From a virus, in IMG/VR virus record IMGVR_UViG_3300042691_015370, positions 64,001-128,000 of that record: 64,000 nucleotides of DNA. One strand, given 5' to 3'. This document shows, piece by piece, positions 3,214-31,942 of this stretch. The notes under the pieces were generated by a model, which saw only the letters and a list, made by a program, of their open reading frames with translations, made no database searches and was not told the DNA's origin. Made by a program: the position numbers and the translations under genes. Numbering within the stretch: the first letter of the stretch is position 1; the number at the start of each line of letters is the position of its first letter.

Positions 3214-3222
3214 AACTATCTC

Positions 3223-3726: not shown

Positions 3727-3727
3727 A

Positions 3728-4552
3728 TCAGGTCAACCTTACGGAAATAGGATCTGCCTCACCAATAATATAAGACTGACCATTTAACAGTGTAGTTTCT
3801 GGAACATCAATATATGCAAGCAGTGGGGGGTCCGTCTCACTAGCATAGAATCCAATATGATTAAAAGAAGGCCAATCGCCTGTGGCGGTAAATGTGACTA
3901 TGTTGCTTTGCGTTTTGGTCGCCGGTAAAGTAGCTGTTGCCATAGACCATTCAATAAGTTGACGGACATAGCCATCGCCTGAAACTTCGGTAATATCTTG
4001 ACCATTGATATCAAGAAGTGCAACATAAAGACCAGACTCAGGACTCAAAACACTATCAAGAGCAGAGCCAGCGTATTCTGGAAGGATACGCGAATCAAGA
4101 AGATTCATCTCTGCTGTAGATTGATTATCCATATACCAAATTGGTGAGTTAAGACTAGCGTCACGAGGAACAATAAACTCTGCGAGCACCCTCACAGTAT
4201 CACCCGACACAACAGAAAAAGCAGGGTCAATTGGAATAGTGATCCAAGGTGCCCCACCGCCAGTAGGCGTAGACCACAAGCCTAAACCCACAATTGAACC
4301 CCAATTGGAGCCAGCGACAGGAAAGTCATAGTACGTAGGACTCAGACGTTCACAATAGCGTGAACCAATAGTACCTGACCACTGCATTAAAACCCTAGAG
4401 TAGTTACTGCCACCTGAAGTGGATACCTCTGTACCCGGAACATCTAAACCACTTGAGGGCAATGCTGTTAAAAGCCCAACATAGAATTCATCACCAGCCG
4501 AGCACCATTGTTGCAAAATCTGTTCATCAAAGGTAGATTCATTAGTAAACAT
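3728..4552 (-). CDS. Minor tail protein with two tandem copies of a common phage tail-fibre-base domain
   Basis: Duplicated pattern YV[GA]LL...TEVS..G.Y.R..[IM].W...F..A...W....G. Confidence 0.65.
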   Translation of the reverse strand: MFTNESTFDEQILQQWCSAGDEFYVGLLTALPSSGLDVPGTEVSTSGGSNYSRVLMQWSGTIGSRYCERLSPTYYDFPVAGSNWGSIVGLGLWSTPTGGGAPWITIPIDPAFSVVSGDTVRVLAEFIVPRDASLNSPIWYMDNQSTAEMNLLDSRILPEYAGSALDSVLSPESGLYVALLDINGQDITEVSGDGYVRQLIEWSMATATLPATKTQSNIVTFTATGDWPSFNHIGFYASETDPPLLAYIDVPETTLLNGQSYIIGEADPISVRLT

Positions 4553-10757: not shown

Positions 10758-11155
10758 CCTAGATCCTCGGTATTGCTCCAATCGACCACGATCCCGCTAA
10801 TGCTGAACTCGTGTCGCCATGGATACTCAACGGTTCTAACTCTGCGGGGATCAAATGATGTGAACACAACCCAATACGATCTACCGAGATCGTCAGTCAC
10901 CTTGATCTGCTTATCCGTCTGAGTCCACGCACGTAGCGCATTGTATTGATCTTCGGTCAACAATGTTCCAGAAAGTGTCATGCTCTGCTCACGGTTACGG
11001 CCCTGAAACAGCACGGGACGGCCCCGAGTGATCGGCGTCGGTGTCAAGGTCTTTTCAATAGAGGGCATTGTAGTATCTTTGGGGTTGATCTCTAACTCAT
11101 AAGAGAGAGAGGCGTGAACATCCTCAAACAGCCACGGTGTACGTTCTGATGGCAT
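10754..11155 (-). CDS. Distal-tail (Dit)-like protein, paralog 2
   Basis: Position after TMP; shares NP...TDDLGR.[YW].V...SF..RR..T...HE pattern with 11155..11586. Confidence 0.6.
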   Translation of the reverse strand: MPSERTPWLFEDVHASLSYELEINPKDTTMPSIEKTLTPTPITRGRPVLFQGRNREQSMTLSGTLLTEDQYNALRAWTQTDKQIKVTDDLGRSYWVVFTSFDPRRVRTVEYPWRHEFSISGIVVDWSNTEDLG

Positions 11156-11596: not shown

Positions 11597-14500
11597 TCAG
11601 TAGTGAGGCTCGTAAGAGCCTCTAGTGCCCGGAACGCCCATGAACTGGATCATCACGTCCATGAACTGCTGGAAGTCCATGCCGCTATTGATCGTCACGC
11701 CACCCATGTTCAACTGACGCCCATCAGTATAACCCATCGCCTGACCGCCAGCATTATAGGAAGTCTGCTGGTTCATGCGGCGAATCTCGTACACTGTTGG
11801 GAGGCCCAAAGTTGATGGCATGTTGATCGACAGATCAGAACTCATATCATCCTTGAGGCGCTTCAGTTCAAGCTCAAGTTCCTTGAACTTCTTGGAGCCG
11901 GGGATGACGGTAGACTGTAGGTTCTTGATGTGAGCCATGTACGTAGACTTGGAAATCTCGTTCATCTCTAGCATGTACTTGTACTCATCGTAACGGTCAG
12001 TATAGACAGCATCCTGTGCGGCCTTGTCTGCGCTAATAGCAGCGGCACGAAGCCTATTGATCTCAGCCTCACCCATACCCTGATCAATACCGTACTGAAG
12101 CTGAGCCTGAGCCTGCTGGCGAGCTACCTGAGCAGCACCAACCTCGTCTTCAATCGCAAGAAGTTCAGCTTGACGCAACTCCATAGCAGACGTGCGAATG
12201 TTTTGCATAGCATCAGCAGCCGTTCGCTGAGCATCAGCGAGTCTTGTTTCAAGATCGATAATTGCATCAATGTCATTAGCCTTCTTAGCATCTGCTAGAA
12301 GCTGATTGAGCATCTTGATGTTGTTATCAGACTGCTGCATTGGATCGCGAGTCCGAGCATTTAGCAGACCGAACAGTGCCTCTACACGAGCACGGTAAGC
12401 TTGGCGCTCTGCCTTAATGGCATTGTTGTAGGCTTCCTCAGCAGCCATGATCTCATCAATATCGCCACCCTTTCTTGCATCAGCAAGAATCTGAGCAGCA
12501 GCCTGAGTATCCATGTTTGCGTTGGCGAGATTGTCATTAGTTCTGGACTTCTTAAGCCCAAATAGTGCTCTCACCCTAGCCGCATACGCAGCCCTCTGTG
12601 CTTTTTCTGCTTCAAGTAGGGCTGTCCAAGCATCAGCATACTGAGCACTATCTTTGCCAAAGATTCTCTCCATGTCAGCAAGTGAATTTTGAGCAACAGC
12701 AACGTCGATGTTAGCACCTTGCAGCGAATCCTTAGCCAAAGCTTTAAATAGCCTACCAAGAGACTGCATTTGAGCATTGAGAGCAAGCTCAAATGCTCTC
12801 TGTAGTTCTAGTTTCTGTTCAAGAGCAGCGTTCAGTGCCGCTTCATCACCCTTACCTGATGCTACATCAATATCAAATTGATTGTTCAGCAGAGCACCGT
12901 AGGCTCGCTTGACGTCATTACCACCAGCCCAACGAGCAATATTGAGACTATTTCTAGATCTATTGACAGCAATACCTTGTTCAAACTCAGCTTTCTGAGC
13001 TTCACCAACCGCAACGTTAGCCTCATCCCATTCTGCTGTACCCGGAGCGTAACGATCTCTTGCAGCAATGGCCGCTAGAACGTTATTGCGAGCAATCTCC
13101 ATTGGGTTAAATGTACGTGAATTGGCAAGTCTAAATCTTCTAGTTGCCGAAGCTGTAATAGCGTCCATGTACTGACTCTGGGCAGCCCAATAAGCCTGCT
13201 CAGCTTCGTCTACATCGGCCTGAGTGGCTTCGCCCGCCGCAAAAGACTCTTTGGCCTTCTGCCATTCAATTGCAGCGGCCTCCCAGTTCGTTCTCGCCGC
13301 TCCCAGCGTATCGCCAGTAGCGGCCTGCTTCGCTCCCTGAGCACCTGCACGGGCAGCACGGGTACGTCGCTCTTGCTGTCTGCGGGCATTTCTGGTTTCG
13401 ATCTCGCTTTCTTCAACGTCAAAATTAGCATCTTCAAGATCATCAGCGTACTGCTGTTGAGCTTCCTCAGACCAATCTTCGCCGCCCCTTGCTTGAGCAC
13501 GATCTCTATCTCTAATGATTCTGTCACGCTTGTCGCGAGCAGCATTCTCTTCAGCCACAGCGGCCGCAACGGGGTCGTTGCTGCGCATAGCGTTGATTCT
13601 TGAACGCCTATACTCCCTATTATCCTCACGCTCTTCACCAGCCAAGATAAATGCATCTTCTTGACGCTTGAGATTTCTCTCAACCTCTTCTGGGCTAGGC
13701 AGATCCGGTGGTGGAGCTACGCCAGCAGGGAGCTTCACGTCCCCTGCCATGCCAACAAATTCTAACAAAGCATACAGGAACTGTAGATGCTCTTCCAGCT
13801 TCTTAATATCCTCTTCAGAAGCTTCTGGATCAGCCTTTAGTTCAGCTAGTTTATCCTTTGTGACGGCAAAACTGGACTTCAAGTCTCTTGTATTAGATGC
13901 ACTCAAAGTATTGTCGTCTAGATAGTCTCTGACAATAGACTCAGTAAATGCTTCACCACTTAGAGCAGACCTTGGAATCAGACCCTCACCAAATACTGAA
14001 TCTTCACCAGTTGGTGGCGTGTATCCAAAGTCCTTAACTAGCTGTGCAGTTGTTGCATTTCTACCGGGCTGAGCGGTACCCTGATCATCCTCAGCTATCC
14101 ACAATTCCTTATCAGCATCATAAGTGTAATTTACATTCGCCCCAAGAGCATCTTTTCTTGAGAACGTATCTCCGTCAGCGGGTCCAGCTTCATTGGAACC
14201 AGACCGTGCGCGAATAGCATCATAGGCTTCGATACCAGCGGCAAAAGCTTCCGAAGCCTTAAAACTATCTGTAATAACTGCATTGTTTGCAGCACGCAGT
14301 CCCTCATCTTGACGCATTCTTTCAATGACAGATGCATCATCTGTAGTATTGGCAAACAAGCTTGCATAAAAAGCCTTCTTAGCGTCAACTACCTGTGCCG
14401 CTACTTCTAGCCTTTGATCACGATCATCAAAAGACGCATTGTTAAGCAAGTCTACATAAGCGCTCAATTGAGCAGCCTGAATCCCAGCCTCAGAGGCACC

Positions 14501-17500
14501 AAATATCTCCATCATCTGGAGAGATCTATCAACCTCGCCCCTGAGAGCCTGAGAAATCTGTTGCTCAGCCTGACGCTTAGCCTGAGCGTATGCTTGAAGA
14601 TCTTCTTCTGAAGGTGCCGTGTCACCGCCATACATCGACTGGCGCATCGTTCTCAATGCTTCAGTGGACTCTTCGATCAGCCCTTTAGTGCCCGTTCTAC
14701 CAGCGCTAAATCGACTAGAAGCCTCTGTAATATCAAAGTTAAGGCGCTCGGCCCTCGTCATATCCTCTAGCTTGGCTTCACGCATCTTGCGTTGAGTTTC
14801 AGGATCATCAAGCGAAACCTGAGCAGCCTTTTCCAAACCAGCCCGAATGCGTGCAACCTGATCCTCGTTAAGATTGCCTTCGGCCTGCATACGTTCAAGC
14901 TCAGCTTGTGGATCATCGGCGGTAATAACCTCAACAACTTCAGCAGACATATTGTCTGGATTCTGATATCCTAATGCTTCAGCGTAGGCAGCCTTAAGTG
15001 CAGCCTCATTATCAGAAAGACGTTCTGTTCTTAATCTTCCACTTGAACCACCAACAATACCATTATCATCAAAAATTTGATTTAGTAATGATTGCTCATT
15101 TTTAGCCCTACGTCGAAGTGACAAACGAGCTTCGTCAATATTTTCGCGCTGCATTTCTTGAAGTGCAGGGGATTGCCGTCCAAAAGCTTCACGAATCTGT
15201 CTAGGAGTAGCGTCTCTGCCGGGTCGAGTGCCTCGACTTCCACCACCAGCAATCGCTGCACCACCAGCAACCCCACGATCGTTAAAACCGCCACTCAATG
15301 CAGCAGTCATTCCAAACGTCTGGAAATAAACCTCTCTTGCAATTTCTGGATTGGCTCGCAAATCGTCTAGTGCAGTGGCCCGTTCAATCGGGATCTCTGC
15401 AAGCACGGCCTGACCACGCAAAATACTCGCTTCAGACTCACGGTTAAATATGGGTCGCCACCAGCGGTCCCAGCCACCACGATCCGACTCAGCGGTTCTT
15501 GCTTGGGATCTTAATTCGGCCGCACGCTTTGACAGTGCCGACTCTGACCCATCTATACCAAGAGCGGCAAGCTTACGTGCCCCTTCATTACCTTCCTTGG
15601 AAGTTTCATAAAGCTCACGCAATGCGGCAGTATCTTGATCTAGCATGCTGTTTACGGCGCTATAAGCTGCCGTAAGAGCCATAATCGCAATAAATGGATT
15701 AGATACCAGACTACCTACAGCGCCAGCAAGGGCCGCTGCTCCACCGCCACCAATCTTCGTAGCAGCCGTACCTACACCCGCTCTCAAACCAGCCTGAATC
15801 TTGCCAGTACCAGAATCTGGCAAGATAGGACCGGCTAGTCTGACCCCACCACGACCAATCGGTGCCCCGGAACGATAATTTTCGTATCTGGCGGCGAATC
15901 CACCAGCGCGATCGTACATTCCTCTCTGAATATTCGACCTATACTGAGCAAAGGAGTCAGGTGCCCAGACATTGCCAGCCATGCGACGTTGCTCGGATGT
16001 TCCAGAATAAAGTACTTGAGACTTGCCATTTTCGTCTACAGCATATCTTGCCCCAGTTGGAGTAACAGCATAGTAGCCACCCTTACCATCAGGCATAGGT
16101 TTAGCAACTGCGTCTGATCCATCTGGATACTTTGTAGGATCTAATACAGTAGCCTTGCCAACAGGTGAATAGAAGCCACCAACGCCCTGTGTCATGGCTC
16201 CTGTGTAAATAGCGTTAGTTCTGGTCATCACCTCCCCACCGTGCTGGATAGCCATACGCAGAAGCTTCCAAGCGGCTACGGCACCAAGAATCTTAGCTGG
16301 TGTGCCGCCCAGAATCTCATTGATGAAAGTAAACAACTTAGCAACAGGAGAGATAACGGTTGCCAAAAGTTTAAGGCTATCAATTAGAACCTTAAACATA
16401 TCCTCTAGACCAGCGTCCAGAGCATAAACCATAATAGTACGGAATTGCTCACCAAGAATTCTCATCTGCGTGGTAAGCGTTTCCTTCTGTCGTTCAAATC
16501 TCTTTTCTAGCGCTCCCTCACTATCTGAGGCACGGGCCTCAAACCTTTCCGTGTTCTGTGGCTTAGCAAATGCTCCAATAACCACACCAGCTTCACGACG
16601 GCCACCAAGCAGTTGATATAGCTGCTCTTCAGATTCCTTACTGATATTTGGCAGGGCTTGAGGCAGTGCCTTAAAGACATCTGCTGTAGTTCCTTCACGC
16701 AATGCATCAATAAAATCTGGACCAAAGCCCGGATCTTTATACGCAAGCTGGAGAAGAGCGTCCTTATTGCCGGGAACAGATGGCAAAACTCGACCCAACT
16801 GCTCAGCAAGAGCGCCACCGGTACGACCAGATGTCTGAGCAATGGTTGCACCAATGGCAATAATTTCATCTGACGTAAACCCAGACTGCTTAGCGATAGG
16901 AGCAATACTTGACAAGAACTCAACCTGAGAAGCTACGTCAACACCAGACTCTGAAGCTACTGCCGTAAGCTTGTTGCCAATAAGCTCATTGCTCTCTCCG
17001 AAAGAGAGGCCAATCGCAATAGCCTGATCACTCAGAGTCTTGGTCGGCAAGTCTGCGACAACCGCAAGCTTCGCTGCGGCTTCTCGCTGCTCCTTAACCA
17101 ACTCTTCGCCCGAAATCGACCTATCACCAGCACCCTTAATCGTTTCTCCCAAAAATGCGCCTCTAATAGAGATCTCCATTTTTGCGATCTCATCAGCGCC
17201 GACACCAGTTTCCTTCGAAAGATCAACGATAGCCTGTTTAATGCCATCAATCTTGCCCTTAGCGTCTTCACCAAATGTTTGCGCTAGCTGCGAGTCAAGG
17301 CGTGCTAGCGCAAACTTGAGTTCTTCAGCTTCCTTGAGAGCGCCAACAAGACCAGCCCCAACACCAAACAAAAGCATAGAGGGCAAAGCATACTTCATAC
17401 TTTGAATTGCGCCCTCACCAAACCAACCGCCCAAGCTGTCATCGCCTCGCACAGCTTGGCGGAACGCCGTAAACCGACTTGGCTTACCATTATTGCCATA

Positions 17501-20500
17501 AAAACGACCGCCACCGCCGTACCCACCATAGCCGCCATAGCCGCCACCGCCGCCGTATCCACCACCCATTCCGCCACCAGCAGCAGTGACAGGATCTGAC
17601 AAACGACCAGTTCTTCTAAACTCTTCATCAAGAATTTCTTGATCAGAAAGGTTAAAGCTCTTCTTTAATCTTTCGTACTGAGCGGCAGCTTGAGCTTGTT
17701 GTTGAGCAACATCTTCTGGGCTACCAGCACCGGGACTGAACGCCTGACCCAGAGCGCCGTATGCTCTTGTAGCTGCCTTCGCTCTTCTCTCTTGCCACCT
17801 AGCAGCACCCTCGTCTGCACTCAGTTCACCTGAAACGACGTCATCCCAAATGTCGGCACTCTTGCCCTCTGGGAACAGTCCTCTGCGAGCAGCAGCTTTT
17901 TGTCTTGGGGTTAAGGCTTCCCAATTACCATCACTCAAGTTACGCGCAGCCTGACGCTGGTCAGCAGCGAACTTGGCCTTACGGGCAGCAGCGTCAGACT
18001 CGGCTTTACGATCAGCATCTGCCGTTTCATTTTCGGCCCGAGCACGACGACGTTGCTCTGCTTTCTCCTGTCGCCGTTTTTCGTTCGCTTCGGCAGCCGC
18101 AGCAATAGCGGCTAGACGATCAGCTTCAGTGGCAGGACCGACAAAAGGAGTGCCACCACCATCAATAACATTAGTACCTGCACCCAGTGCTCTGCGCTCT
18201 GCGAGTCTAGCTCTTCTTGCTTCAATATATGGGTCTACTGGAGGTAGAGCAAGAGGCTGTCGTGGCCCATAAAGCGGAATTGGCACACCAGTACCCGGAA
18301 TGTCGGTACCAATCATTAACTCTCTAGCAGAGAAGCGGCGCTGTTCAGGGGTAACTCCCGGCCCCAAGGCAAGAGGTGTTGCAGATCTACCGAGTGCCTC
18401 AGCAGCGGTTGCAGCAGCATCAGTGCCCACAGCAACTGCATGCATCTCAAGAGCCGCCGTGTCCGCAAGGAGAGCTAGCCTCAGTTCTGATGCAGTAGCT
18501 GTAAGGGAATCTAATTCACTGACAAGAACGGCTCCAGAGACTCCCGTGGCAGTAGTACGAGATCTTGCTACTTCATTAGCTCTTGTGAAAATAGCGATCT
18601 GTTCTGGTGTGGCTTCTCCCGAAGCAACTAGGGGTCGCAATTCAGCAAAGTACTCACTTGGAGATAGCTTTGACTGACTCGTTGGGAACAGTGCGTCGGG
18701 ACCACTTAGTCTGTCACCTCTACCAACAATAATCCCCTGATCTTCAAGGATCTGGCGATAAGCTGGATCTAGACCCAGCATATTCTCCATACGATGCTGA
18801 GCTTCGTGCAGGGCTGTAGCCGGTCCAGCGCCGAGAGTTGCTGCACCAGCAGCACCAACCTCACGACTCGTGCCTCCACTAGCTACCCAATCGTCAACAC
18901 CAGCAATCATCTCTGAGTTCATTACCCAGCGACCATCACCCGTCATTGCCCCTAGACGGCCACGGAACTCATCGCTTAGTTCTGAAACAACCTCGGTTCT
19001 TAGATCACCCAGCAGGTTAGGTGCCCCTGCTTGCATAGAACGCATGTATGCTTCAATACCAGATGCGCTACCCAAAATGTCAGGACGACGAGGGGTGCTA
19101 TAAGCGTCAGAACCGGGACCAAGCTCTGGCGGGCGCTTGCCTTCTTGACTTCTGCGAAGTTCTTCCTCTACCTGCTGACTAATTACCTCTGCACTTGGCA
19201 TAAGGCTAACTTGTCTTGGGCTTGGCCCATAAATGGTGCGGTAACCATCATTTCCATAGTAATGAGACAACTTACTGGTGCCCGTCAGGCCCCAGTTTTG
19301 AGACACCGCCTCTGTGTCGTAAAGCGATCCGTAGCTTCCAGACTTAGCATCTAGCCATTCATTATAGGCTCTAATCATCCTTTGTCGAGTACGAAGCGAG
19401 TGATCATATATGTTGTCACGGAACCCTTCAATCCACTGTACATCACCCTCGTCCTCAAGCTGCATTTGAACGAAGTTGATAGCATCAGAAGATTGGGTTT
19501 TACGGTATCTATTGGGACGACTGAATGCTGTCTCACCAGAACCAAGCTCGCCCCTGAAAGGTGGTGGGAAGAGTTCGCTATATGAGAAGGCTCCCCTGAA
19601 GGGTGGTGGCTGTGTTCTGTAGCTTGGCAGTGGCGGAGGAATAGGTCCAGTGTAAGGTGGTAGTCCCCAACCGGGGCCTGAGTATTCGGGACGAGTAACT
19701 CCGGGCAGAGAACCAGTATAAGGAGGCGGTGTTAAAGCTTGCTTATTAGCATCCCATTGAGCTTCAAAGATCTTGTACTGAGCCTCGTCGTCGGTCAAAA
19801 TGCCACGACGAATCATGCGCTCAATACTTGCGGCCGCTGTTACACTAGAATCACGAAGCCGCTCCAAAGACTCTCGCAAATTGGCAGGTACCTCAAGCCG
19901 ACCAGCAGCTAGCCTCTGCTTTTCTGTCCATTCGCTACTATCATCAACGTCGGAACCAGCAAACAGCTTGTTCCACATGATGTCTTTGACACGCTTCTGT
20001 TGAGCAATCTGCTCGGCAGTGCCACGACCAACATCGTAACCAATAACCTCTGCACTAGGTACAGGGCTAAAACGAGATACCCGTCTTGGAGAAGGACCAA
20101 TAACGTTACCATATAGATCATAAGAAAGACCTATAGTACTACCGCCTAGCCCTTCACGAGCCAATCTTTCTTGAATTGCTCCTTGTCGCTGACGGCTTCT
20201 AGGGAAAGCTTCTGCAATTTCTGCACCCGGCTTATTCTCTGTTAGCATGAAGGGCAATGCAGCGTCTTCTATAGCCTGCATGGCAAGGAAGTTCATGTAG
20301 TCAGAAGACTGCGGCCTATTCGGAGTGCTGAAGATAGTGCGGCCCGTGCCTAGAGCAAGCTGCTCACGCACGAAGGAGTCAGTATCAAGACCATACAGCC
20401 AGTCTTTAAGCTCCCTGTTACGAGGACTCTTGCTCAAAACTTGTCCGAAGATATCACCCTCATTGCGAGAAACAACATCACGAACATTCCGAGCAGCCAA

Positions 20501-23500
20501 GCTTGGACTACCGCCTCTACCCAATTCTGAGTAAAGATCAATGAGAGTAAATCCAGCCCTAGGATCGTACATAAAGTTACTAGCTGAACCAGTGTCTGGA
20601 CTAAGGCCCCGCATTCCAACCGCAATCAGAGATTGCAGCATGGCTCGTACCTGAACGATCTCAGGCACAATACCCTTACCCTGCCCAAGAGCCATACCGG
20701 GCGCTAGGCGAGTAATCGGGTGACCGAGCTTATCGACAGCAGCAAGTTGCTCAACACCCGGAATGCCGATTACTTGCTGTAACCCTCTAGTACGCTCTAG
20801 TAGTCGAGCATCTGCAACTTCTGGGAACTCTCCAGTACCCTCATACAGCATCTCATAAATTGAGGGGTTCTCTGGCAGCGGCTCACGCCAAACATAAGAA
20901 GATTTGCCTGCTTTGAATCCATAGGCAGCAGCCTGTGACCCAATACCAATGGGTGAACCAAGAATCTTGCCACGATAAGCGAGAGCCAACTCTTTATCAA
21001 GAGCGGCGCGTTCTTTCGATCTGGCTAGCTGCGCAGCAAGACGTGACTGAGAGGGATCACTGTATTGAGTTGAGGCACCGGGCAGTGCAAGACGTTCAGC
21101 AACACTGCGAGAAATAAGGGGAGTCGCAAGAGCTTGAGCTTCAACCAAAAGAGCCTGAGCTTCAGGACCATCAAGTCTACGCAGTCGTTGAGCGAGGTCC
21201 AAAGAGGCTTGCGGCACTCCCCTTATTTCTCTAACAGATTGGGCAGCATTTTCTACATTACCAAGAGCTTTTTCGACCAAACCGCGCTTACTGTATTGAC
21301 GAGGCAACATATCAAGCTGATAGTCAATAGATGTAAATCCTCTATCGCCCGTAGTGTCGTAGAGAACATTCTTCCAATGACCGTCGCCATGGATACCCCG
21401 CAAACCCAAAGCCGCTTGAGTCCTGAAAAGCGCAAGAATCTCATCCTTAGTGGGGATGTTTCCGAAATACGTTCCCTCGTTTTGTCTATCAACTATTTGC
21501 TTAATAGTTTGGCCGGGGGCACGACGAGTAATTGGCCTACCATCACTAACGGCAACCAACTGCTCCGCACCCGGAATTCCAATAGCCGCCTTAAGACTAT
21601 CTAGTCTAGAATAGATGTTTGGATTTAGCCTTCTGATATCTCTTCTTGCAACATACTCTTGCGAACCCGCAGCAAAACCATAGGCGGAACTGTTCATACC
21701 AGTACCCAACGCCTCTTGGGTTAAGTTTCCACCTCTCAATATTTCATTTAGTGCCAAGCGATCAGACGAACGTTGCAGTTGTGTTATGAGACGAGCATTA
21801 GAAGGAGTACTGTAAGCGTCACGCGGCATGCCAATAGCGAGGCGCTCATCTCTGGCCCAACGTTTTTCAAGATTGAGTTCACGAGAACCCATTGCCATAG
21901 CTTGCTTATGAAGCTTATTGAAGTCCAGTGCCATACCACCAAACTGTTGGCGTAGCGGCTCATACGCTTGAGTGAACCAAGCACGGGTAAAATCATTGGA
22001 CATCTGCGGGAAGGCAAGCTCAGTGGCTGCGACTTCGGCCGTCAATTCATATGGAGTTGCTCTAGAGTAGTTGCTTGGTACAAATCCTGTACCACCAACA
22101 AGACTTCTTCTAGACTGATCTTCAAACGGTGCGCCGGTCCATCTACCGCCAATGTCCGCAATTAACTGTTTACGGTTTTGTGGCACGGGCAGGAAATGTC
22201 CAGCCTCATGAGCAAACAAGGTGCCAAACAAACCTCTACCAACAAGTGCGTTTTCATTATTAACACTCTTGGGCTGTAAACCGCCGAAAAGACGACTACG
22301 AACACCCATAAATCTAGGAGCAAACCCAGACTCACCGAGCATCCTGCCATACTGCCTTTCCCAAGGACTATTAGCATCGGAAGCTACCCTAACGCCCAAG
22401 GCACCGAACTTTGCTACACCAGAACCAAAGCGGCTATCATAGTCAGCCATCATGGAAGCCAAAACAGGCATTGGAGCATTGGCAAATGGCCGTCTTAGCT
22501 GCGTAAGGTCAGTGCCCTTCTTGAGGATATCGGTATTAAAAGTACCATTGAATACGCTATTAAGCGCATCAAGACTTGTTTGGTTAATACTTCGAGATAC
22601 ACGCGTTCTACGGGGACCGACATCATCAAACGATGGGAAGGGCTGGATAGGGGCGAACCGGCTCGTTTGAGAAAAGGCTTGAGGGTACAAGAACTTAGCG
22701 GCAGAAACCGCTTCACGCTCACTGCTAAAGTTTGGAATAATCTTCGCAGCTTCACCGAGTGGATTAAAATTACCTGCACTAGAGAGCATTGCATCAACAA
22801 GTGCTGGCGCATTTCTAAGAGACTTAGCCCTAGCACGAGATGCCATAAACTGCGTCGGTCCATGCCATTGCTCAATAGATGGATCAACAAGAGCTTCTAG
22901 TTTGGGTAGAATCTCTCGGTACTCACGAGTCCGCTGTAGCTGTTGCTCAAGACGTTGCGAGATTGTGCCCGATCGTGGCGTCGAATAAGCGGTCTGCCCC
23001 GCACCAAGCGCTGGGATGCCAAGGTCAGCCAAAGGATCATTTGAACGAGCTTGAAGAGCTAGACGAGCACCCTTGCTAATAAGTCCAGCGTCACCAAGCT
23101 TGGTAATGTCAGCTTCCCAGATACGGCCAGAGTAGAACTTATCACCAGAGAGTCTACCGTCTAGCAATCTACCGGGCTGCACCATACGTGCAACACCGGC
23201 GTTTGCAAATCTCTCCCATAGCGCATTAGCCTGCAATGACACAACATTATCAGACCTTGCCGTAGTAACGCCAAGCCCTGACATCAGCCTTAGCATACTA
23301 TCAATGTACATCCCAGAGCCAAGACCACGACCCCGAGCGCTCGCATCAAGTGAACTTAATGCAACACTAGCAGTTGATGGTTGCCGTACATTTGGAACAT
23401 TCCAGTCAATAAAGCCACGGGCAGAATCACCGGGCTGTCCAAAGTTGTAGTTAAAGGATAGTGGAACGGTAGAATTCTGTAGCGGTGAACTATAAGCATT

Positions 23501-24997
23501 TCTGCCGGGAGTCAATTGACGGGACTGTCGTGCAACGTTCTGTAGAGCATTCTCCTGCTGCCAACGATTGAAAGCAATGTCGGCAGGAGTTATAACCTGA
23601 CCAGAGCCAGTTGTTACTACCTGTGGTCCACCGATACGTTCACCAAACGTTCTTTGAGACAGTGAAGTGGAGGGAACATACTGAGGCAAAGCAAATGTCT
23701 GCCGATACGGCAAAGCCCCAGCTTGAGATGCTGGGGCTAGCGAAGCAGAACCGGTTGGTAGACCAGAAACCGCTGCCGCCTTGCGCTCCAGAGCATCGAT
23801 CAGACCCTGCTCTGCTGCGGCGAAACGACCGTAGCTACCAGTCAGAACAGAGGTTTGTCGATCTAGGGCACGGGACTTGCTCTGAAGGGCACGAATCAGT
23901 ACCTGTTCCTCAAGAGCAAGTTGACTGCCAGTATTTCCATAACCCGGCTTTGCTGGCTCAGTGGCGGGGGCTGTCGGAACCGCCCTAAGTACAGGCTGGA
24001 CAGGAATAGCAATAGCAAGCTGAGCAGACTGACGCTCTTCTCTGCGACGATCTACGAGCGCCTGAGGTGCCACTGGAGCGGGGATCGCCACCATGGCGGG
24101 TTGCTGCACAGAGGTCGCAATAGGACGTGGCAGAGCGGGCTGTGAAGCCTGTACTGATGGGGTGGGAAGTTGACGTGGCCCGCCGACAGCAACGGCCAGA
24201 ACCTGATTATAGGCACGAGCAACTCTATCCCTCGTACTCTGGGCAGCAAACCTGTTGGCCGCAACAATCTCTTTCTGAGAACGAATGACCTGATTCTGGA
24301 ATGCATTGGTCTGCTCCAGCAGAGCCGTGTACTGACGTGCCTGTGCAGTCTGTCCACGGAGAATGCTTTCAAGATCCTTGTTGTACCGATCAGTGATAGC
24401 TGAACTGGTCAGTACCGGAGCGGCAGCGGCGACGTTTCTCGTCACCGACGAAGTTGTAGACGCTATGGCAATAAGGCTGGCTTCTCTGTCGAGCCGCTGA
24501 TTGAAGACCTTGGAGATATCCTCAATACGAATGTTGTCCAGTACGGCAAAAAGTTGCTGTGACTTCTGAGTGAAAGCTGAAGAGAAGACTCGTTCAATTT
24601 CTGCCTGTTGCTGTGGGGCAAAGAAGTTGAAGCCACGAATCTGTTGTTTCAGCTTGTCAAAGTAGAGATCACCGAACCTGTTCAGATCCTGAATCTGGCG
24701 ACCGATGACACGAGATGATGCAGCAAGCTGAGCCTGCATAAGCGCAGCAACACGGCCCTGTGCGGCCATGAGTTCACGCATCTCACCTCGTGAGGTGGCA
24801 ATCGCAGATGTCGCAATAGTATTAGGTGATCCTAGTGCTGCAAGAGTTGTGGGGGGAGCGAGTTCCCCGGCAACACCACCAGCACCCCCTAGGGCACCGG
24901 CCTCAAGCGCACGCAACGAGTTGGCAGTCTCACGAACGCCTCTCTGAATGCCAGAGGTATCAAGATCTACACTAATAAGCCAGCGATCTTCTGCCAT
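11597..24997 (-). CDS. Giant tape measure protein (4466 aa) carrying an N-proximal array of enzyme-like effector modules
   Basis: Follows the frameshifted tail chaperones; TMP-type N-terminus (LISVDLDTSGIQRGVRE); TMP core near 17400-16200 (IKQAIVDLSKETGVGADEIAK); helical repeats at the C-terminus; GNAT, HExxH and kinase motifs in 23480-18380. Confidence 0.9.
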   Translation of the reverse strand: MAEDRWLISVDLDTSGIQRGVRETANSLRALEAGALGGAGGVAGELAPPTTLAALGSPNTIATSAIATSRGEMRELMAAQGRVAALMQAQLAASSRVIGRQIQDLNRFGDLYFDKLKQQIRGFNFFAPQQQAEIERVFSSAFTQKSQQLFAVLDNIRIEDISKVFNQRLDREASLIAIASTTSSVTRNVAAAAPVLTSSAITDRYNKDLESILRGQTAQARQYTALLEQTNAFQNQVIRSQKEIVAANRFAAQSTRDRVARAYNQVLAVAVGGPRQLPTPSVQASQPALPRPIATSVQQPAMVAIPAPVAPQALVDRRREERQSAQLAIAIPVQPVLRAVPTAPATEPAKPGYGNTGSQLALEEQVLIRALQSKSRALDRQTSVLTGSYGRFAAAEQGLIDALERKAAAVSGLPTGSASLAPASQAGALPYRQTFALPQYVPSTSLSQRTFGERIGGPQVVTTGSGQVITPADIAFNRWQQENALQNVARQSRQLTPGRNAYSSPLQNSTVPLSFNYNFGQPGDSARGFIDWNVPNVRQPSTASVALSSLDASARGRGLGSGMYIDSMLRLMSGLGVTTARSDNVVSLQANALWERFANAGVARMVQPGRLLDGRLSGDKFYSGRIWEADITKLGDAGLISKGARLALQARSNDPLADLGIPALGAGQTAYSTPRSGTISQRLEQQLQRTREYREILPKLEALVDPSIEQWHGPTQFMASRARAKSLRNAPALVDAMLSSAGNFNPLGEAAKIIPNFSSEREAVSAAKFLYPQAFSQTSRFAPIQPFPSFDDVGPRRTRVSRSINQTSLDALNSVFNGTFNTDILKKGTDLTQLRRPFANAPMPVLASMMADYDSRFGSGVAKFGALGVRVASDANSPWERQYGRMLGESGFAPRFMGVRSRLFGGLQPKSVNNENALVGRGLFGTLFAHEAGHFLPVPQNRKQLIADIGGRWTGAPFEDQSRRSLVGGTGFVPSNYSRATPYELTAEVAATELAFPQMSNDFTRAWFTQAYEPLRQQFGGMALDFNKLHKQAMAMGSRELNLEKRWARDERLAIGMPRDAYSTPSNARLITQLQRSSDRLALNEILRGGNLTQEALGTGMNSSAYGFAAGSQEYVARRDIRRLNPNIYSRLDSLKAAIGIPGAEQLVAVSDGRPITRRAPGQTIKQIVDRQNEGTYFGNIPTKDEILALFRTQAALGLRGIHGDGHWKNVLYDTTGDRGFTSIDYQLDMLPRQYSKRGLVEKALGNVENAAQSVREIRGVPQASLDLAQRLRRLDGPEAQALLVEAQALATPLISRSVAERLALPGASTQYSDPSQSRLAAQLARSKERAALDKELALAYRGKILGSPIGIGSQAAAYGFKAGKSSYVWREPLPENPSIYEMLYEGTGEFPEVADARLLERTRGLQQVIGIPGVEQLAAVDKLGHPITRLAPGMALGQGKGIVPEIVQVRAMLQSLIAVGMRGLSPDTGSASNFMYDPRAGFTLIDLYSELGRGGSPSLAARNVRDVVSRNEGDIFGQVLSKSPRNRELKDWLYGLDTDSFVREQLALGTGRTIFSTPNRPQSSDYMNFLAMQAIEDAALPFMLTENKPGAEIAEAFPRSRQRQGAIQERLAREGLGGSTIGLSYDLYGNVIGPSPRRVSRFSPVPSAEVIGYDVGRGTAEQIAQQKRVKDIMWNKLFAGSDVDDSSEWTEKQRLAAGRLEVPANLRESLERLRDSSVTAAASIERMIRRGILTDDEAQYKIFEAQWDANKQALTPPPYTGSLPGVTRPEYSGPGWGLPPYTGPIPPPLPSYRTQPPPFRGAFSYSELFPPPFRGELGSGETAFSRPNRYRKTQSSDAINFVQMQLEDEGDVQWIEGFRDNIYDHSLRTRQRMIRAYNEWLDAKSGSYGSLYDTEAVSQNWGLTGTSKLSHYYGNDGYRTIYGPSPRQVSLMPSAEVISQQVEEELRRSQEGKRPPELGPGSDAYSTPRRPDILGSASGIEAYMRSMQAGAPNLLGDLRTEVVSELSDEFRGRLGAMTGDGRWVMNSEMIAGVDDWVASGGTSREVGAAGAATLGAGPATALHEAQHRMENMLGLDPAYRQILEDQGIIVGRGDRLSGPDALFPTSQSKLSPSEYFAELRPLVASGEATPEQIAIFTRANEVARSRTTATGVSGAVLVSELDSLTATASELRLALLADTAALEMHAVAVGTDAAATAAEALGRSATPLALGPGVTPEQRRFSARELMIGTDIPGTGVPIPLYGPRQPLALPPVDPYIEARRARLAERRALGAGTNVIDGGGTPFVGPATEADRLAAIAAAAEANEKRRQEKAEQRRRARAENETADADRKAESDAAARKAKFAADQRQAARNLSDGNWEALTPRQKAAARRGLFPEGKSADIWDDVVSGELSADEGAARWQERRAKAATRAYGALGQAFSPGAGSPEDVAQQQAQAAAQYERLKKSFNLSDQEILDEEFRRTGRLSDPVTAAGGGMGGGYGGGGGYGGYGGYGGGGRFYGNNGKPSRFTAFRQAVRGDDSLGGWFGEGAIQSMKYALPSMLLFGVGAGLVGALKEAEELKFALARLDSQLAQTFGEDAKGKIDGIKQAIVDLSKETGVGADEIAKMEISIRGAFLGETIKGAGDRSISGEELVKEQREAAAKLAVVADLPTKTLSDQAIAIGLSFGESNELIGNKLTAVASESGVDVASQVEFLSSIAPIAKQSGFTSDEIIAIGATIAQTSGRTGGALAEQLGRVLPSVPGNKDALLQLAYKDPGFGPDFIDALREGTTADVFKALPQALPNISKESEEQLYQLLGGRREAGVVIGAFAKPQNTERFEARASDSEGALEKRFERQKETLTTQMRILGEQFRTIMVYALDAGLEDMFKVLIDSLKLLATVISPVAKLFTFINEILGGTPAKILGAVAAWKLLRMAIQHGGEVMTRTNAIYTGAMTQGVGGFYSPVGKATVLDPTKYPDGSDAVAKPMPDGKGGYYAVTPTGARYAVDENGKSQVLYSGTSEQRRMAGNVWAPDSFAQYRSNIQRGMYDRAGGFAARYENYRSGAPIGRGGVRLAGPILPDSGTGKIQAGLRAGVGTAATKIGGGGAAALAGAVGSLVSNPFIAIMALTAAYSAVNSMLDQDTAALRELYETSKEGNEGARKLAALGIDGSESALSKRAAELRSQARTAESDRGGWDRWWRPIFNRESEASILRGQAVLAEIPIERATALDDLRANPEIAREVYFQTFGMTAALSGGFNDRGVAGGAAIAGGGSRGTRPGRDATPRQIREAFGRQSPALQEMQRENIDEARLSLRRRAKNEQSLLNQIFDDNGIVGGSSGRLRTERLSDNEAALKAAYAEALGYQNPDNMSAEVVEVITADDPQAELERMQAEGNLNEDQVARIRAGLEKAAQVSLDDPETQRKMREAKLEDMTRAERLNFDITEASSRFSAGRTGTKGLIEESTEALRTMRQSMYGGDTAPSEEDLQAYAQAKRQAEQQISQALRGEVDRSLQMMEIFGASEAGIQAAQLSAYVDLLNNASFDDRDQRLEVAAQVVDAKKAFYASLFANTTDDASVIERMRQDEGLRAANNAVITDSFKASEAFAAGIEAYDAIRARSGSNEAGPADGDTFSRKDALGANVNYTYDADKELWIAEDDQGTAQPGRNATTAQLVKDFGYTPPTGEDSVFGEGLIPRSALSGEAFTESIVRDYLDDNTLSASNTRDLKSSFAVTKDKLAELKADPEASEEDIKKLEEHLQFLYALLEFVGMAGDVKLPAGVAPPPDLPSPEEVERNLKRQEDAFILAGEEREDNREYRRSRINAMRSNDPVAAAVAEENAARDKRDRIIRDRDRAQARGGEDWSEEAQQQYADDLEDANFDVEESEIETRNARRQQERRTRAARAGAQGAKQAATGDTLGAARTNWEAAAIEWQKAKESFAAGEATQADVDEAEQAYWAAQSQYMDAITASATRRFRLANSRTFNPMEIARNNVLAAIAARDRYAPGTAEWDEANVAVGEAQKAEFEQGIAVNRSRNSLNIARWAGGNDVKRAYGALLNNQFDIDVASGKGDEAALNAALEQKLELQRAFELALNAQMQSLGRLFKALAKDSLQGANIDVAVAQNSLADMERIFGKDSAQYADAWTALLEAEKAQRAAYAARVRALFGLKKSRTNDNLANANMDTQAAAQILADARKGGDIDEIMAAEEAYNNAIKAERQAYRARVEALFGLLNARTRDPMQQSDNNIKMLNQLLADAKKANDIDAIIDLETRLADAQRTAADAMQNIRTSAMELRQAELLAIEDEVGAAQVARQQAQAQLQYGIDQGMGEAEINRLRAAAISADKAAQDAVYTDRYDEYKYMLEMNEISKSTYMAHIKNLQSTVIPGSKKFKELELELKRLKDDMSSDLSINMPSTLGLPTVYEIRRMNQQTSYNAGGQAMGYTDGRQLNMGGVTINSGMDFQQFMDVMIQFMGVPGTRGSYEPHY

Positions 24998-25046: not shown

Positions 25047-25391
25047 TTACTTAAATCTAGCAGCATATGCATTTTCTTCCCAGTCGGCAGGATCTGACGA
25101 AGACTGAGAACTGCTGCCACTAGAGTACTTCTCTTCCCTCTTCTGTTTCATGATCTTGAAATGTGTATCAAGCTCATGGTCGAGATGCCACTTCCAATGT
25201 TCCGGCATCTCATCCTCAGCCAAATTCTCTTGCCACGACAAGATTCTCAAAGCATGATCAATAGTCAGCATAAGGTCCGCTGGGACGCTCTCAACATTGA
25301 ATCCCTGTGGAAACAGGGTTTGAACGCCACCAGCGGCCTTAGCTACCGAGACAAGTTTTAGAAACTGAGGATCTCCGCTCAGTCTTTTCCC
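25047..25391 (-). CDS. Tail assembly chaperone, frameshifted (GT-like) C-terminal part
   Basis: -1 frame from slippery GGGAAAA is open (GKRLSGDPQFLKLV...) and continuous with ORF 25047..25271. Confidence 0.8.
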   Translation of the reverse strand, partial: GKRLSGDPQFLKLVSVAKAAGGVQTLFPQGFNVESVPADLMLTIDHALRILSWQENLAEDEMPEHWKWHLDHELDTHFKIMKQKREEKYSSGSSSQSSSDPADWEENAYAARFK

Positions 25392-26167
25392 TCTACTGGA
25401 TCAGCAGTCATCTCGTTGTACTCGGTCAACAGACGATTCAGAACCTTGGCATCAAGTGCGTCAACTTCGCTGCGATCAAGGAAATACTGCTCTTTATGAT
25501 TCTCTGGATCACGTACAGCATAGAAAACCTGCCAGCGAGAGAACTCATTGACCCAAGCAAAGTCAGCCTCAGCGTCAATAGCGCGCTCAAGAGTCTTGGC
25601 GCTCAGTTCGTCATCGGAGAAATGCGTGAACTCAAGACGAATGTTTTCCTTGTCCTCTTCAGTTGCCTCGTTCACCTGATCAGTGAACTTCACAAGCTCG
25701 TTGTAGACCCGAACTGCCTCTTCGTCCTCTGGGTCAGTGGCGTACTTGTCGTTTAGCCCCTCGTTCCAAGCGGTCTGGAGAGACTTGAGATAGTCGTTGT
25801 CAGACCAAGCAGGCTCATCAGCAAGGCGAGCCTCATTGGAGGCATAAGCTTCCTGAACCTTGGGTGCCATCAGGAACTCAATCATAGAGTCACGATCCTT
25901 GACACCAAGATCTTCTAGCTGCTCACGGAACACAGCTACCTGACGAGGGTCCGATTCAGGATTCTGCTTGAGGGCAAGAAGCTTAGCCCTAGCACCGGTA
26001 GCAGAGTCAGCGGCGTCACGCTGCTGAATGGGCGACAGCTTTGAAAGCCAAACAACAATAGGCTCATCAGTGCCGTCATCAAACGTAAGTTCCTTGCCGA
26101 CTACATAGAGATCCGTCAACCGACGACGGGTAGGGGCAATAACTTCCTTAGTGGTGGTCTTAGCCAT
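25379..26167 (-). CDS. Tail assembly chaperone (G-like)
   Basis: Start MAKTTT at 26167 with GGAG RBS; acidic helical protein between major tail and TMP; ends at slippery site. Confidence 0.8.
   Translation of the reverse strand: MAKTTTKEVIAPTRRRLTDLYVVGKELTFDDGTDEPIVVWLSKLSPIQQRDAADSATGARAKLLALKQNPESDPRQVAVFREQLEDLGVKDRDSMIEFLMAPKVQEAYASNEARLADEPAWSDNDYLKSLQTAWNEGLNDKYATDPEDEEAVRVYNELVKFTDQVNEATEEDKENIRLEFTHFSDDELSAKTLERAIDAEADFAWVNEFSRWQVFYAVRDPENHKEQYFLDRSEVDALDAKVLNRLLTEYNEMTADPVEGKD
25385..25391 (-). other. Programmed -1 ribosomal frameshift site G GGA AAA
   Basis: XXXYYYZ heptamer in the correct frame, one codon before the chaperone stop, between major tail and TMP genes. Confidence 0.85.
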
Positions 26168-26253
26168 ATAAACTCCTATATCCAATACCGTATCATCACG
26201 GTAACATACCAAACGACCTGAAAAAGTTAACGGAGCAAGTCCCACACAAATTG

Positions 26254-29198: not shown

Positions 29199-31742
29199 TT
29201 AAGGTACATATACACTTGTGACATCCCAGTCGCTTCCATTTGATGTCACCTCCAAATTTGTTCCAACAGCAGTAATTTCGTAATCGGCAGCACCATCCAC
29301 CGTCTCTCCCGATTGAGCATCAAGCCTCACAACTCCCCCAGTTGCGGCCACCCTCACTTTGATCGATCGACCGGGGCAAACGGTTGCACTTGGTAATTGA
29401 AGAACTAGTGTTGTCAGAGCAGTGTCTACAGTGATGTAGTCACCGGCAGAAACGTCATAGCCCGCACTCACTGTGACAGCGTTTGATGGACTGCCACTCA
29501 GGATGGAGTAGGAACCAACATAGGCACCCTGACCGTTCGTAGCGACAATGGCGCCACCACCGATAGCATTCCAACCCCCGGCAATCCACACACCGTCAGC
29601 CGTATCAAAATGCTCAGTCATCACAACTGCACCGTTGTGGATGGTGAGTAGACTCAGATCGTCCAGAACGAGCACACAAAACGTTCCGGTCTGAGCGTTG
29701 ATAGCAACATTTGTAGTGGTTCCGTTGGCGTTGAGCACGCTCAGGTTATTGCCCACCACATCTGTGGCGATCCAGTCAGGACGATAGGACCGGGAGACAC
29801 CTTCACCACCCGTGATGCCAGTGCGTCCCGACGGGCCTGCGACGGGTGTCATGCCGCGCTGCGTTGGGTCACCATACAGTCGAAACAAAGCACAGTACGC
29901 CCAGCGGGTGCCGGTGTAGCTAACATGATCGTAGTTGCCAATATCGGTATCGAGCATAGAGCCGAAACCAGTCGCACGAGTTGCCGGGGCGTTCAGATGC
30001 AACGTCCAGACCCCACCATTGCCATCACTGTTATTGAGGATGGTCAAATTTTGACCATCCTCAATAGCTTGACCACCGACATGGGTGGCGGTCCCGTCGA
30101 GCGGGAAGTCGGGGTCAAACGTGACGTACTTAGAGACATGCAGATGAGGCACAACAGGTGTGACCGGATGGTAGCGGTTCAGTCTGTTCTCTAGTGTATC
30201 AATACTACTTTCAATCTCAGACAAATCGATAATGGGAAGTATTTGCTCAAAGCTACTGTACCCCAGCGTAGCACCACCAATCAGATACAGCCAAGCCACC
30301 GAAGAGCCAAGACCGGGTGCAAGCTCGAACTTTGACACCAGCCACAGACCAGCGTCAGAAGTGTTCCATGAGCGGACCTTGACGAAAGCCCCATCACCGA
30401 CATGCTCAAACAGGCCGCTTGACTGACCAGAAATCTCATCGGGATTCGCTCCGAGCACGGCCAGCAAACGCGCATTGCCAACAGTAGGCAGTCCGCTGAA
30501 CATACCAACAGTCCACACACCCTGAAAGAAGGACCCACCAAAATCAGCCTCTGGATTACCAGAGATGAAAGCTACTCGCATAGATCCAGCACGCTCAGCA
30601 ACTTCATCAACCGCCTCAGGCAGCGTATCTGCATTCAGTCCCGAGGCAGTGTTGTCGTAGGGGTAAACCTGAGTCGTAAAGTTGCAGTCCATTCCATCGT
30701 TGGCAGTAAAAATGATGGAGTTGCCGTACTTGTCGCCAGAGCCAACATGGACAGGAGTGCCAGTAAAGAGAGAGTCAGCTTCCCAGCGGCCATTCAACTG
30801 ATGCACCCTATGGAAGTAGATGTCTCCGGGTTCAACTGACGATCCCCCGAAATCATCAACCTCAAGATAGGTGGGGTGATTCGTGCCGTTGGGTTGAACT
30901 TCGAACACTTCCCAGAAGCCATTGTGAGCCTCAGTTGGCTGCCCACCAAGACCAGCGACTCTGGGAGCAGTGAGTTCGATGCCATCAATATCAGATACGG
31001 CAGGAAGTCTCACGTCATCGGGGTCACCAGCAGCATGAGCCAGAAGCGCATCCCCATCAGTTCCATCATGATACCCAGCGGTAATAGAAGGAATGGGTCG
31101 TCGCTTCTCGACGCTGAAAGTAGTTACATCATCTACGACACTGACATCCAGCCCATATCCGGCAACAAGCTGGGAGCCAATAACTGCCTCCCTGACAAAG
31201 AGCGTGGCAGGTGCAGTGGGGTCCAAGGGATTGTTGTTCATACCAAAGAACGTGGCTGTAGCCTCAGCATAAAGGGAAGCCACAACTTGTTCACCGCCAA
31301 GCACCGGGATTCTCTCGCATGGACCAGATGCAGTGATTCTCCACAATCCAGCGCTTGGACCAGACAGTGACAACACAGTCACCCCAACACCCATCGACCT
31401 TGGGACGTTGGCAGCCTCGACCGTAACTCCATCAAGGCTCAGAAGATCAACTTCAGTAAAGTTGCCACCAACCAAATCAACGTCTGCACCAACAATGCCA
31501 TTGGCGACAAGATGACCACCAGAACCAGAGCCACCAGAGCCATCACCCGAAATACTGGGAAGTTCCGACCAAGTAGAAGAACCGTCCCCAATCTTCAGCG
31601 TTGCTGTGTCTTCGTCATAGCCAGCCCTACCACGAGCAAGCACCTTGTCGTTGGCCTCCCATTCGGCGGTCGTGCGGACTATTACCCCCGGTCCCGGTGG
31701 TCCCTGAACTCCATCTGTGACTACAACAACTCTACTCATCAC
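29199..31742 (-). CDS. Fibre protein with Mtd_N-like N-terminus, internal repeats and C-terminal beta domain
   Basis: TTAEWEANDKVLARGRAGYDEDTATLKIGDGSSTWSELP (Mtd_N/hyaluronidase-N type); repeated ..G.W.[IV] fibre units; C-terminal VDT...TLVLQLPSA...GRSIKV...ETVDGA. Confidence 0.7.
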   Translation of the reverse strand: MMSRVVVVTDGVQGPPGPGVIVRTTAEWEANDKVLARGRAGYDEDTATLKIGDGSSTWSELPSISGDGSGGSGSGGHLVANGIVGADVDLVGGNFTEVDLLSLDGVTVEAANVPRSMGVGVTVLSLSGPSAGLWRITASGPCERIPVLGGEQVVASLYAEATATFFGMNNNPLDPTAPATLFVREAVIGSQLVAGYGLDVSVVDDVTTFSVEKRRPIPSITAGYHDGTDGDALLAHAAGDPDDVRLPAVSDIDGIELTAPRVAGLGGQPTEAHNGFWEVFEVQPNGTNHPTYLEVDDFGGSSVEPGDIYFHRVHQLNGRWEADSLFTGTPVHVGSGDKYGNSIIFTANDGMDCNFTTQVYPYDNTASGLNADTLPEAVDEVAERAGSMRVAFISGNPEADFGGSFFQGVWTVGMFSGLPTVGNARLLAVLGANPDEISGQSSGLFEHVGDGAFVKVRSWNTSDAGLWLVSKFELAPGLGSSVAWLYLIGGATLGYSSFEQILPIIDLSEIESSIDTLENRLNRYHPVTPVVPHLHVSKYVTFDPDFPLDGTATHVGGQAIEDGQNLTILNNSDGNGGVWTLHLNAPATRATGFGSMLDTDIGNYDHVSYTGTRWAYCALFRLYGDPTQRGMTPVAGPSGRTGITGGEGVSRSYRPDWIATDVVGNNLSVLNANGTTTNVAINAQTGTFCVLVLDDLSLLTIHNGAVVMTEHFDTADGVWIAGGWNAIGGGAIVATNGQGAYVGSYSILSGSPSNAVTVSAGYDVSAGDYITVDTALTTLVLQLPSATVCPGRSIKVRVAATGGVVRLDAQSGETVDGAADYEITAVGTNLEVTSNGSDWDVTSVYVP

Positions 31743-31942
31743 ACACCTTCTTCTTCAAATACACTTGGATCTACATAATACGTAGGCTCTATAACCTCGT
31801 AAGCGCCTAAAGTTCCTTCTGGAATAAGATCCTTCATCGATGCCGGAATCCCATGTAATATAACGCCACATTGATTCGCAATTGCTGTTTCACGCACCGC
31901 ATTAGATGTTGGTAATGGTTCATTCGTAATCCAGAATTTCAT
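31739..31942 (-). CDS. Small hypothetical (fibre-associated) protein
   Basis: ATGA-coupled between two fibre genes. Confidence 0.55.
   Translation of the reverse strand: MKFWITNEPLPTSNAVRETAIANQCGVILHGIPASMKDLIPEGTLGAYEVIEPTYYVDPSVFEEEGV

Follow-up and report, generated by a model that had tools for sequence, protein, structure and literature searches.

Cell-wall hydrolase motifs are embedded in the tape measure proteins (TMPs) of mycobacteriophage TM4 and of phage T5 (pb2). A different kind of cargo is found in the Thermus phage P23-45, whose gp96 is a TMP of 5,002 amino acids fused to an N-terminal virion RNA polymerase (RNAP) that transcribes the pre-early genes; from its presence in the virion and from the pre-early transcription, the authors infer that this RNAP is delivered at infection (PMC10770324). 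Multiple enzymes on a single chain are also typical of the polyvalent proteins described by Iyer et al. in 2017, whose protein-modifying classes comprise kinases without a C-lobe, zincin metallopeptidases (MPTases), GNATs and ADP-ribosyltransferases (ARTs), and for which both a zincin-mediated self-processing and a cassette-like turnover of domains were proposed (PMC5512222). Their published carriers are MuF and portal proteins, the virion RNAP of N4 or substrates of type IV secretion systems, all of them packaged in the head, and nowhere does that paper use the term “tape measure” (PMC5512222). Finally, the actinobacterial contractile injection systems (Sle1) have TMP-related effectors with exchangeable functional domains (PMC13277306, PMC11126660). 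A TMP-fused delivered enzyme, exchangeable TMP-like scaffolds and the polyvalent sets of domains are therefore all known already. Here we describe a TMP of an uncultured phage that could bring these features together in one polypeptide. It is encoded in a stretch of 64,000 nucleotides, hereafter the window, which spans positions 64,001 to 128,000 of the IMG/VR virus record IMGVR_UViG_3300042691_015370 (144,887 bp, G+C 50%), and it carries an array of seven linker-delimited modules that include two predicted kinase folds and two candidate zincins. A preliminary description of the window had regarded peptidoglycan hydrolases as the usual limit of what a TMP carries, a view that the TMP plus virion RNAP of P23-45 makes outdated (PMC10770324).

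The protein (P0001) corresponds to one uninterrupted open reading frame (ORF) of 4466 codons on the minus strand of the window (positions 11597-24997), without any stop codon across 13.4 kb and with a uniform composition along its whole length. It has no cysteine and just 16 histidines among its 4466 residues (0.36%), 12 of which are in the cargo region. Neither Pfam nor PHROGs scans with the full-length protein gave a match, and the tape measure core was detected only when segments were scanned separately. In this way, TIGR01760 (tape_meas_TP901) matches residues 2545-2893 (window 16319-17365, minus strand) with 56 bits over a cut-off of 28.8 (E 3.3e-15, model positions 3-334 of 349), and PF10145 (PhageMin_Tail) matches residues ~2588-2790 with 45.2 bits over a cut-off of 33.2, in agreement with the start of the core near residue 2530 given in the preliminary description. 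The gene order of the region runs from the terminase to a candidate capsid protein, the collagen-like fibre genes, the TMP, two small ORFs and an ORF of 1795 amino acids, and the same neighbours flank the L002 orthologue and the TMP of the phage GX15bay. On the basis of profile matches above curated cut-offs and of this conserved gene order, we identify the 4466-residue protein as a genuine tail TMP.

Residues 501-2216 of the TMP are divided into seven segments (M1 to M7), each of them opened by the same short linker, [AIQ][YF]S[TSRD]P, usually preceded by L-G-x-G-x-x (consensus L-G-x-G-x-x-A-Y-S-T-P). The linkers start at residues 501, 670, 1061, 1311, 1555, 1824 and 1965, which are window positions 23497, 22990, 21817, 21067, 20335, 19528 and 19105 (the minus strand applies to these and to all module coordinates below). 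These seven copies compare with 0.05 expected after shuffling the protein, where 2000 shuffles gave a maximum of 2, and no copy of the motif occurs in any other frame of at least 100 amino acids in the 145-kb genome. The conserved residues are encoded differently from copy to copy (TCG, AGT or AGC for Ser, ACG, ACT or ACC for Thr, and all four codons for Pro), which indicates that the peptide itself is conserved and led us to reject the linkers as recent duplications of DNA. The array is closed by a linker-like junction at residue 2249, L-A-L-P-P-V-D-P-Y (18227-18253), which is conserved in both orthologues presented below. Each module is an independent unit, introduced by a short conserved peptide and then a helix, and placed between the N-terminal region and the core of the TMP. 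The linker-delimited array of the preliminary description is confirmed by these data, and the module coordinates given there fall between the seven linkers.

Two adjacent modules, M3 (residues 1061-1310; 21068-21817) and M4 (residues 1311-1554; 20336-21067), are paralogous (34% identity over 221 residues, E 4e-25) and are predicted to be minimal domains with a protein-kinase fold, as the earlier mention of two kinase-like modules had anticipated. AlphaFold models, for which a few paralogous and homologous sequences were aligned, show a bilobal kinase fold for both, with predicted local distance difference test (pLDDT) values of ~65-72 for M3 and ~80 for M4. When the first model, which includes M3, was compared with the PDB through Foldseek, all top matches were protein kinases (RIO2, Bud32/PRPK and MSK1, E ~2e-6), and the VIA structural matches were likewise all kinases. 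A profile of the kinase family searched against the PDB retrieved NleH1 (E 0.0066), NleH2, hygromycin kinase, WbdD, OspG (E 0.28) and RIO2, and the ESM Atlas gave a score of 0.95 to OspG kinases. The key positions are a Gly-rich loop at residues 1098-1106, R1118 at the place of the beta-3 Lys, D1205, N1210 and D1225 in M3, and a Gly-rich loop at residue 1351, R1371, D1468, N1474 and D1487 in M4. The Gly-rich loop, the catalytic Asp, the Mg-binding Asn and the DFG-type Asp are invariant in the seven sequences aligned, and only ~85 residues are left after the DFG-type Asp, which means a reduced C-lobe like that of the best structural matches. We conclude that M3 and M4 have, according to their models, a protein-kinase fold with an intact Asp/Asn/Asp set and a putative enzymatic activity. 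The type III effector kinases NleH1, NleH2 and OspG and the atypical kinases RIO and Bud32 differ from both domains, which carry Arg at the beta-3 position, lie inside a structural protein of a phage and match those kinases only marginally in sequence; the OspG_kinase model of Pfam has no match in the genome. Kinase-PolyVal (PF18762) was equally negative in a Pfam scan of the TMP and in a six-frame search of the genome.

Two further modules could be metallopeptidases. M2 (residues 670-1060; 21818-22990) has an unassigned N-terminal half and, in its C-terminal half, a gluzincin-type pair of motifs formed by HEAGH (residues 930-934; 22196-22210) and, 54 residues downstream, ELTAE (residues 984-988; 22034-22048). 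A second pair is found in M7 (residues 1965-2216; 18350-19105), where HEAQH (residues 2064-2068; 18794-18808) is followed at 51 residues by EYFAE (residues 2115-2119; 18641-18655). Both modules conform to the Glu-zincin pattern of an HExxH motif and a downstream Glu, which would act as the third zinc ligand, and this pattern resembles the site of the anthrax-lethal-factor type. Taken together, the three orthologous TMPs have five HExxH modules, each with an ExxAE motif 49-63 residues downstream, and these modules otherwise barely align: M2 is weakly similar to the zincin modules of the orthologue P0003 (hhalign E 1e-3) and to M7 (z 4.0), and a module orthologous to M7 is present in the orthologue P0002 (E 5e-13). 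Searches for a Pfam, PDB-sequence or fold match of these putative zincins were negative (the core of M2 and the profile of M7 were searched against the PDB), MPTase-PolyVal (PF18818) matches nothing in the TMP or the genome, and M2 and M7 stay below a pLDDT of 50 in the AlphaFold models. Of the two zincins in the preliminary description, the conserved pair of motifs was recovered and a family or fold was not, so that M2 and M7 are Glu-zincin metallopeptidase candidates at the level of motifs.

The first module, M1 (residues 501-669; 22991-23497), had been described as a GNAT, and we consider that it may be such an acetyltransferase. What stands of that description is the sequence R-G-R-G-L-G at residues 555-560, which fits the R/Q-x-x-G-x-G/A of motif A, a short motif and weak alone, together with a sub-threshold ESM Atlas score of 0.86 to a viral cluster with a GNAT family in 27% of its members and a second lead (0.84) to a viral cluster that partly carries GNAT families. 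Neither a Pfam nor a PDB sequence match was found for M1, and its AlphaFold model, with a pLDDT of ~30, is not usable. Moreover, M1 has no detectable similarity to the first module of P0002, itself a sub-threshold GNAT match, and therefore neither of them supports the other as a GNAT. As for the remaining modules, both unassigned, M5 (residues 1555-1823; 19529-20335) contains, after a first domain, a confidently modelled helical hairpin (residues ~1700-1755) followed by a Pro-rich tail, and M6 (residues 1824-1964; 19106-19528) is a shorter paralogue of the N-terminal part of M5 (35% identity, E ~1e-6). This hairpin and the kinases were the only usable models from two AlphaFold jobs, and a PDB sequence search with the whole cargo gave nothing relevant.

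The relatives of this TMP are few. An exhaustive HMMER search with residues 501-1700 against 1.84 billion representatives retrieved six proteins, which are two giant orthologues and four stand-alone kinases; only this approach succeeded, since word-index protein searches gave no relatives, and none appeared in the deposited phage collection (DNA or protein), IMG/VR, JGI metagenomes or GTDB genomes. The orthologues, P0002 (4213 amino acids) and P0003 (3639 amino acids), come from different samples and assemblies (Logan SRR23086385 and ENA ERZ22665968, the latter for P0003), and PDB sequence searches with both returned nothing relevant. The gene order around P0002 is that of the window. Both proteins retain the N-terminus, the core and the C-terminus, and their sets of modules differ from that of the window. 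The conserved N-terminal region (residues 1-500; 23498-24997) is 36% identical to P0003 and 54% identical to P0002 over residues 1-505, the core is ~40% identical in the orthologues, and P0002 shares 71% identity over the final 403 residues of the C-terminal region (11597-16318); the segment between the N-terminal region and the core is different. As in the window, the cargo of P0002 begins immediately after the N-terminal region, and comprises, besides a first module with a sub-threshold GNAT match (E 0.0068, 17.1 bits), a module without assignment, a kinase and a zincin candidate of the M7 type. P0003 has instead a weak ART match, two kinases and two zincin candidates; its ART-like module (residues 434-534) is a weak, near full-length match to PF12120, the Arr-type rifampin ADP-ribosyltransferase (E 0.025), has an F-Y-H-G-T motif and is preceded by the linker of its own lineage, A-T-F-Q-G-K.

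Each of these lineages has its own linker, A-Y-S-T-P in the window (7 copies), P-E-V-Y-N-R-P in P0002 (4 copies) and [AT]-T-F-Q-[GA]-K in P0003 (4 copies). Modules M5 and M6, which in the window sit between a kinase and a zincin candidate, are missing from P0002, where the borders of the deletion-like gap coincide with linkers. The comparison of related phages that had been suggested as a check on the array has this outcome: judged from the aligned sequences, modules turn over between orthologues at the linkers. The same comparison bears on the trivial explanation that an assembly or gene-calling artefact fused separate genes, as could be feared for a metagenomic contig judged without reads. 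Two orthologues obtained from other samples with other assemblers also have, in a single ORF, an N-terminus followed by the cargo, the core and the C-terminus. That three assemblies made independently agree in this speaks against a misassembly, as do the even composition and the absence of stop codons noted above, so we regard an artefact as very improbable. The nearest deposited phage is the uncultured GX15bay from mangrove soil, with a TerL 44% identical and a TMP of 2098 residues, the first 700 of which are plain coiled-coil repeats without cargo. With this neighbour and a G+C of 50%, nothing points to the actinobacterial host that had been presumed.

Where would such modules act? One answer is the envelope, where the modules, and above all the zincin candidates, could open the way for the DNA in the periplasm or cell wall, in the manner of muralytic TMP domains. 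There are well-known precedents in TM4 and T5 pb2, which share with the window the presence of enzymatic parts within the TMP, and HExxH peptidases could cut the peptides of peptidoglycan or lipoproteins. However, the domains of TM4 and T5 pb2 act on the cell wall, whereas the TMP of the window has no lysozyme, M23, NlpC/P60 or transglycosylase profile match anywhere, and its only confirmed fold is that of a kinase, which requires ATP and hence the cytoplasm. The weak GNAT-like and ART-like matches of the relatives also imply cytoplasmic cofactors, and we consider that a role in crossing the envelope is improbable.

A cytoplasmic destination is the one that we favour, with slightly more than even confidence: the array of enzymes would be built into the tail as part of the TMP, delivered to the cytoplasm of the host and active on host proteins. 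In such a scheme, the array would be ejected before the DNA and enter the cytoplasm, as does the N-terminal RNAP of the P23-45 TMP, and the delivered modules would modify host proteins before the expression of any phage gene. Three points support the scheme: kinases need ATP, the cargo belongs to the classes known from polyvalent proteins (PMC5512222), and the TMP of P23-45 bears its virion RNAP at the same end (PMC10770324). Both gp96 and the TMP of the window are giant proteins with enzymes that act, or would act, in the cytoplasm, located N-terminally and upstream of the ruler. In contrast, P23-45 carries a single RNAP without repeated linkers, and the TMP of the window has seven modules that belong to other classes. 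The two proteins are not similar in sequence, and no RNAP motif turned up in ours, although no search aimed at one was made.

Several points weigh against this proposal. For five of the seven modules a fold could not be assigned: their models are below a pLDDT of 50, and searches of Pfam, PHROG, NCBIfam and PDB sequences gave no match. The Lys of beta-3 that anchors ATP is replaced by Arg in every kinase copy (Y-V-x-R), as in some pseudokinases, and the kinase activity is therefore uncertain. Folded domains of 25-40 kDa, in at least three copies, would have no obvious fit in a tail-tube lumen of ~4 nm, and they would therefore have to be stored in an unfolded or extended state. Lastly, three members of the lineage were found, and the link between the type of linker and the type of zincin rests on this n = 3.

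Some of these features could also be expected from decayed enzymes, kept as inactive spacers that set the length of the tail or help its assembly. Besides the Arg that every kinase copy has at the position of the catalytic Lys and the lack of any profile match for most modules, this alternative can point to the TMPs of the lineage being very long anyway. Nevertheless, the Gly-rich loop and the D/N/D residues are invariant among kinase copies of only 30-45% identity, and HExxH plus ExxAE is retained in five modules of otherwise poor alignment. Histidine is nearly absent outside the cargo, and 6 of the 12 cargo histidines are placed within the two HExxH motifs and the catalytic loop of M3. A coiled coil, such as that of phage GX15bay, would also be a simpler filler, and on balance there is little to recommend the spacers.

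The linkers themselves admit more than one function. If the array is delivered, the embedded zincins may cleave at the linkers and free the modules; alternatively, the linker and the following helix could form a unit for packing or docking. The possibility of cleavage can be developed into a more ambitious model, which we put forward as tentative, where the TMP would be a self-processing injected polyprotein. In each lineage, the embedded zincin would cut at the private linker (A-Y-S-T-P in the window, E-V-Y-N-R-P in P0002, T-F-Q-G-K in P0003) after ejection, the kinases and other enzymes thus freed would disarm the host, and new cassettes could be added anywhere together with a linker. Cleavage could also take place much earlier. 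The product would then be a late-gene polyprotein, cleaved at the linkers inside the producing cell while the tail is being assembled or earlier. Its modules would act in that cell, for instance late in infection on proteins of the host or the phage, with only the ruler entering the virion. The linkers have the appearance of conserved recognition peptides and occur in no other protein than the TMP, every orthologue has at least one candidate zincin, the DdrB protein of P1 is processed before packaging (PMC5512222), and there would be no need to house folded cargo in a tail tube. It is hard to explain, however, why modules that are not packaged should be fused to a structural protein of fixed stoichiometry, and the cargo occupies the end at which P23-45 has its delivered RNAP; moreover, the conserved N-terminal 500 residues, upstream of the cargo, would be severed from the ruler. 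For these reasons we see the undelivered polyprotein as unlikely, and keep delivery through the tail as our working proposal.

With respect to the polyvalent proteins, the TMP of the window is alike in joining many effector-type domains of the same protein-modifying classes in one polypeptide, and its two predicted kinase folds plus zincin candidates within a structural protein give it at least two conflict-type effector domains in a virion context. It differs in that the Kinase-PolyVal and MPTase-PolyVal models fail on it and in the conserved inter-module linker, as none is described in that paper (PMC5512222). Sle1-type systems also share a TMP-like scaffold that serves as an exchangeable platform, with domains loaded in a tail-like tube and ejected, but they are bacterial injection systems with one C-terminal domain, whereas the phage TMP has an N-terminal array of several modules. 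A full-text search of the literature gave no paper on a TMP carrying kinases or effectors of the zincin or GNAT type. If the array were packaged and delivered, the phage tail would also be a multi-enzyme delivery device with exchangeable contents; the single published case, that of P23-45 and its RNAP, would be extended to protein-modifying enzymes, and TMPs would be tied to the strategy of the polyvalent proteins, so far linked to the capsid. Minimal kinases with Arg for the catalytic Lys, together with private linker peptides, are concrete targets for biochemistry, and the linker-plus-helix unit could guide the engineering of cargo into phage tails.

Among the stand-alone homologues of the kinase modules, one of 471 residues (P0007-like) is encoded at positions 3001-4416 of a contig (CAYXHD010000040.1) from a metagenome-assembled genome of Candidatus Saccharibacteria. 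The genomic contexts of these homologues were uninformative; on related contigs, the neighbours of the stand-alone kinase look chromosomal (EamA, lipase, Fic).

The cargo is separated from the core of the TMP by a charged, Ala-rich spacer (17408-18226, minus strand), which ends in a Gly/Tyr low-complexity run (residues ~2490-2515; window ~17450-17530, minus strand) directly N-terminal of the core; at the equivalent place, the two orthologues show runs rich in Gly and Arg. All the following neighbours are also on the minus strand. Immediately upstream of the TMP gene, at 25047-26245, a 288-residue acidic protein and an ORF of 74 residues occupy the usual position of tail assembly chaperones. 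Two fibre genes (29199-34323) precede the block of the tail tube and TMP, and encode a protein of 847 residues with an Mtd_N-like N-terminus (sub-threshold Pfam match) and another of 794 residues with collagen triple-helix repeats. Two genes downstream of the TMP, the 1795-residue ORF (5394-10781), for which Pfam, PHROG and NCBIfam gave no match, presumably encodes a protein of the tail tip or central fibre. At the level of the whole record, bases 1-50 of the genome recur at positions 144747-144796, 140 bases before the end, and the contig is probably a nearly complete assembly of a circular or terminally redundant genome.

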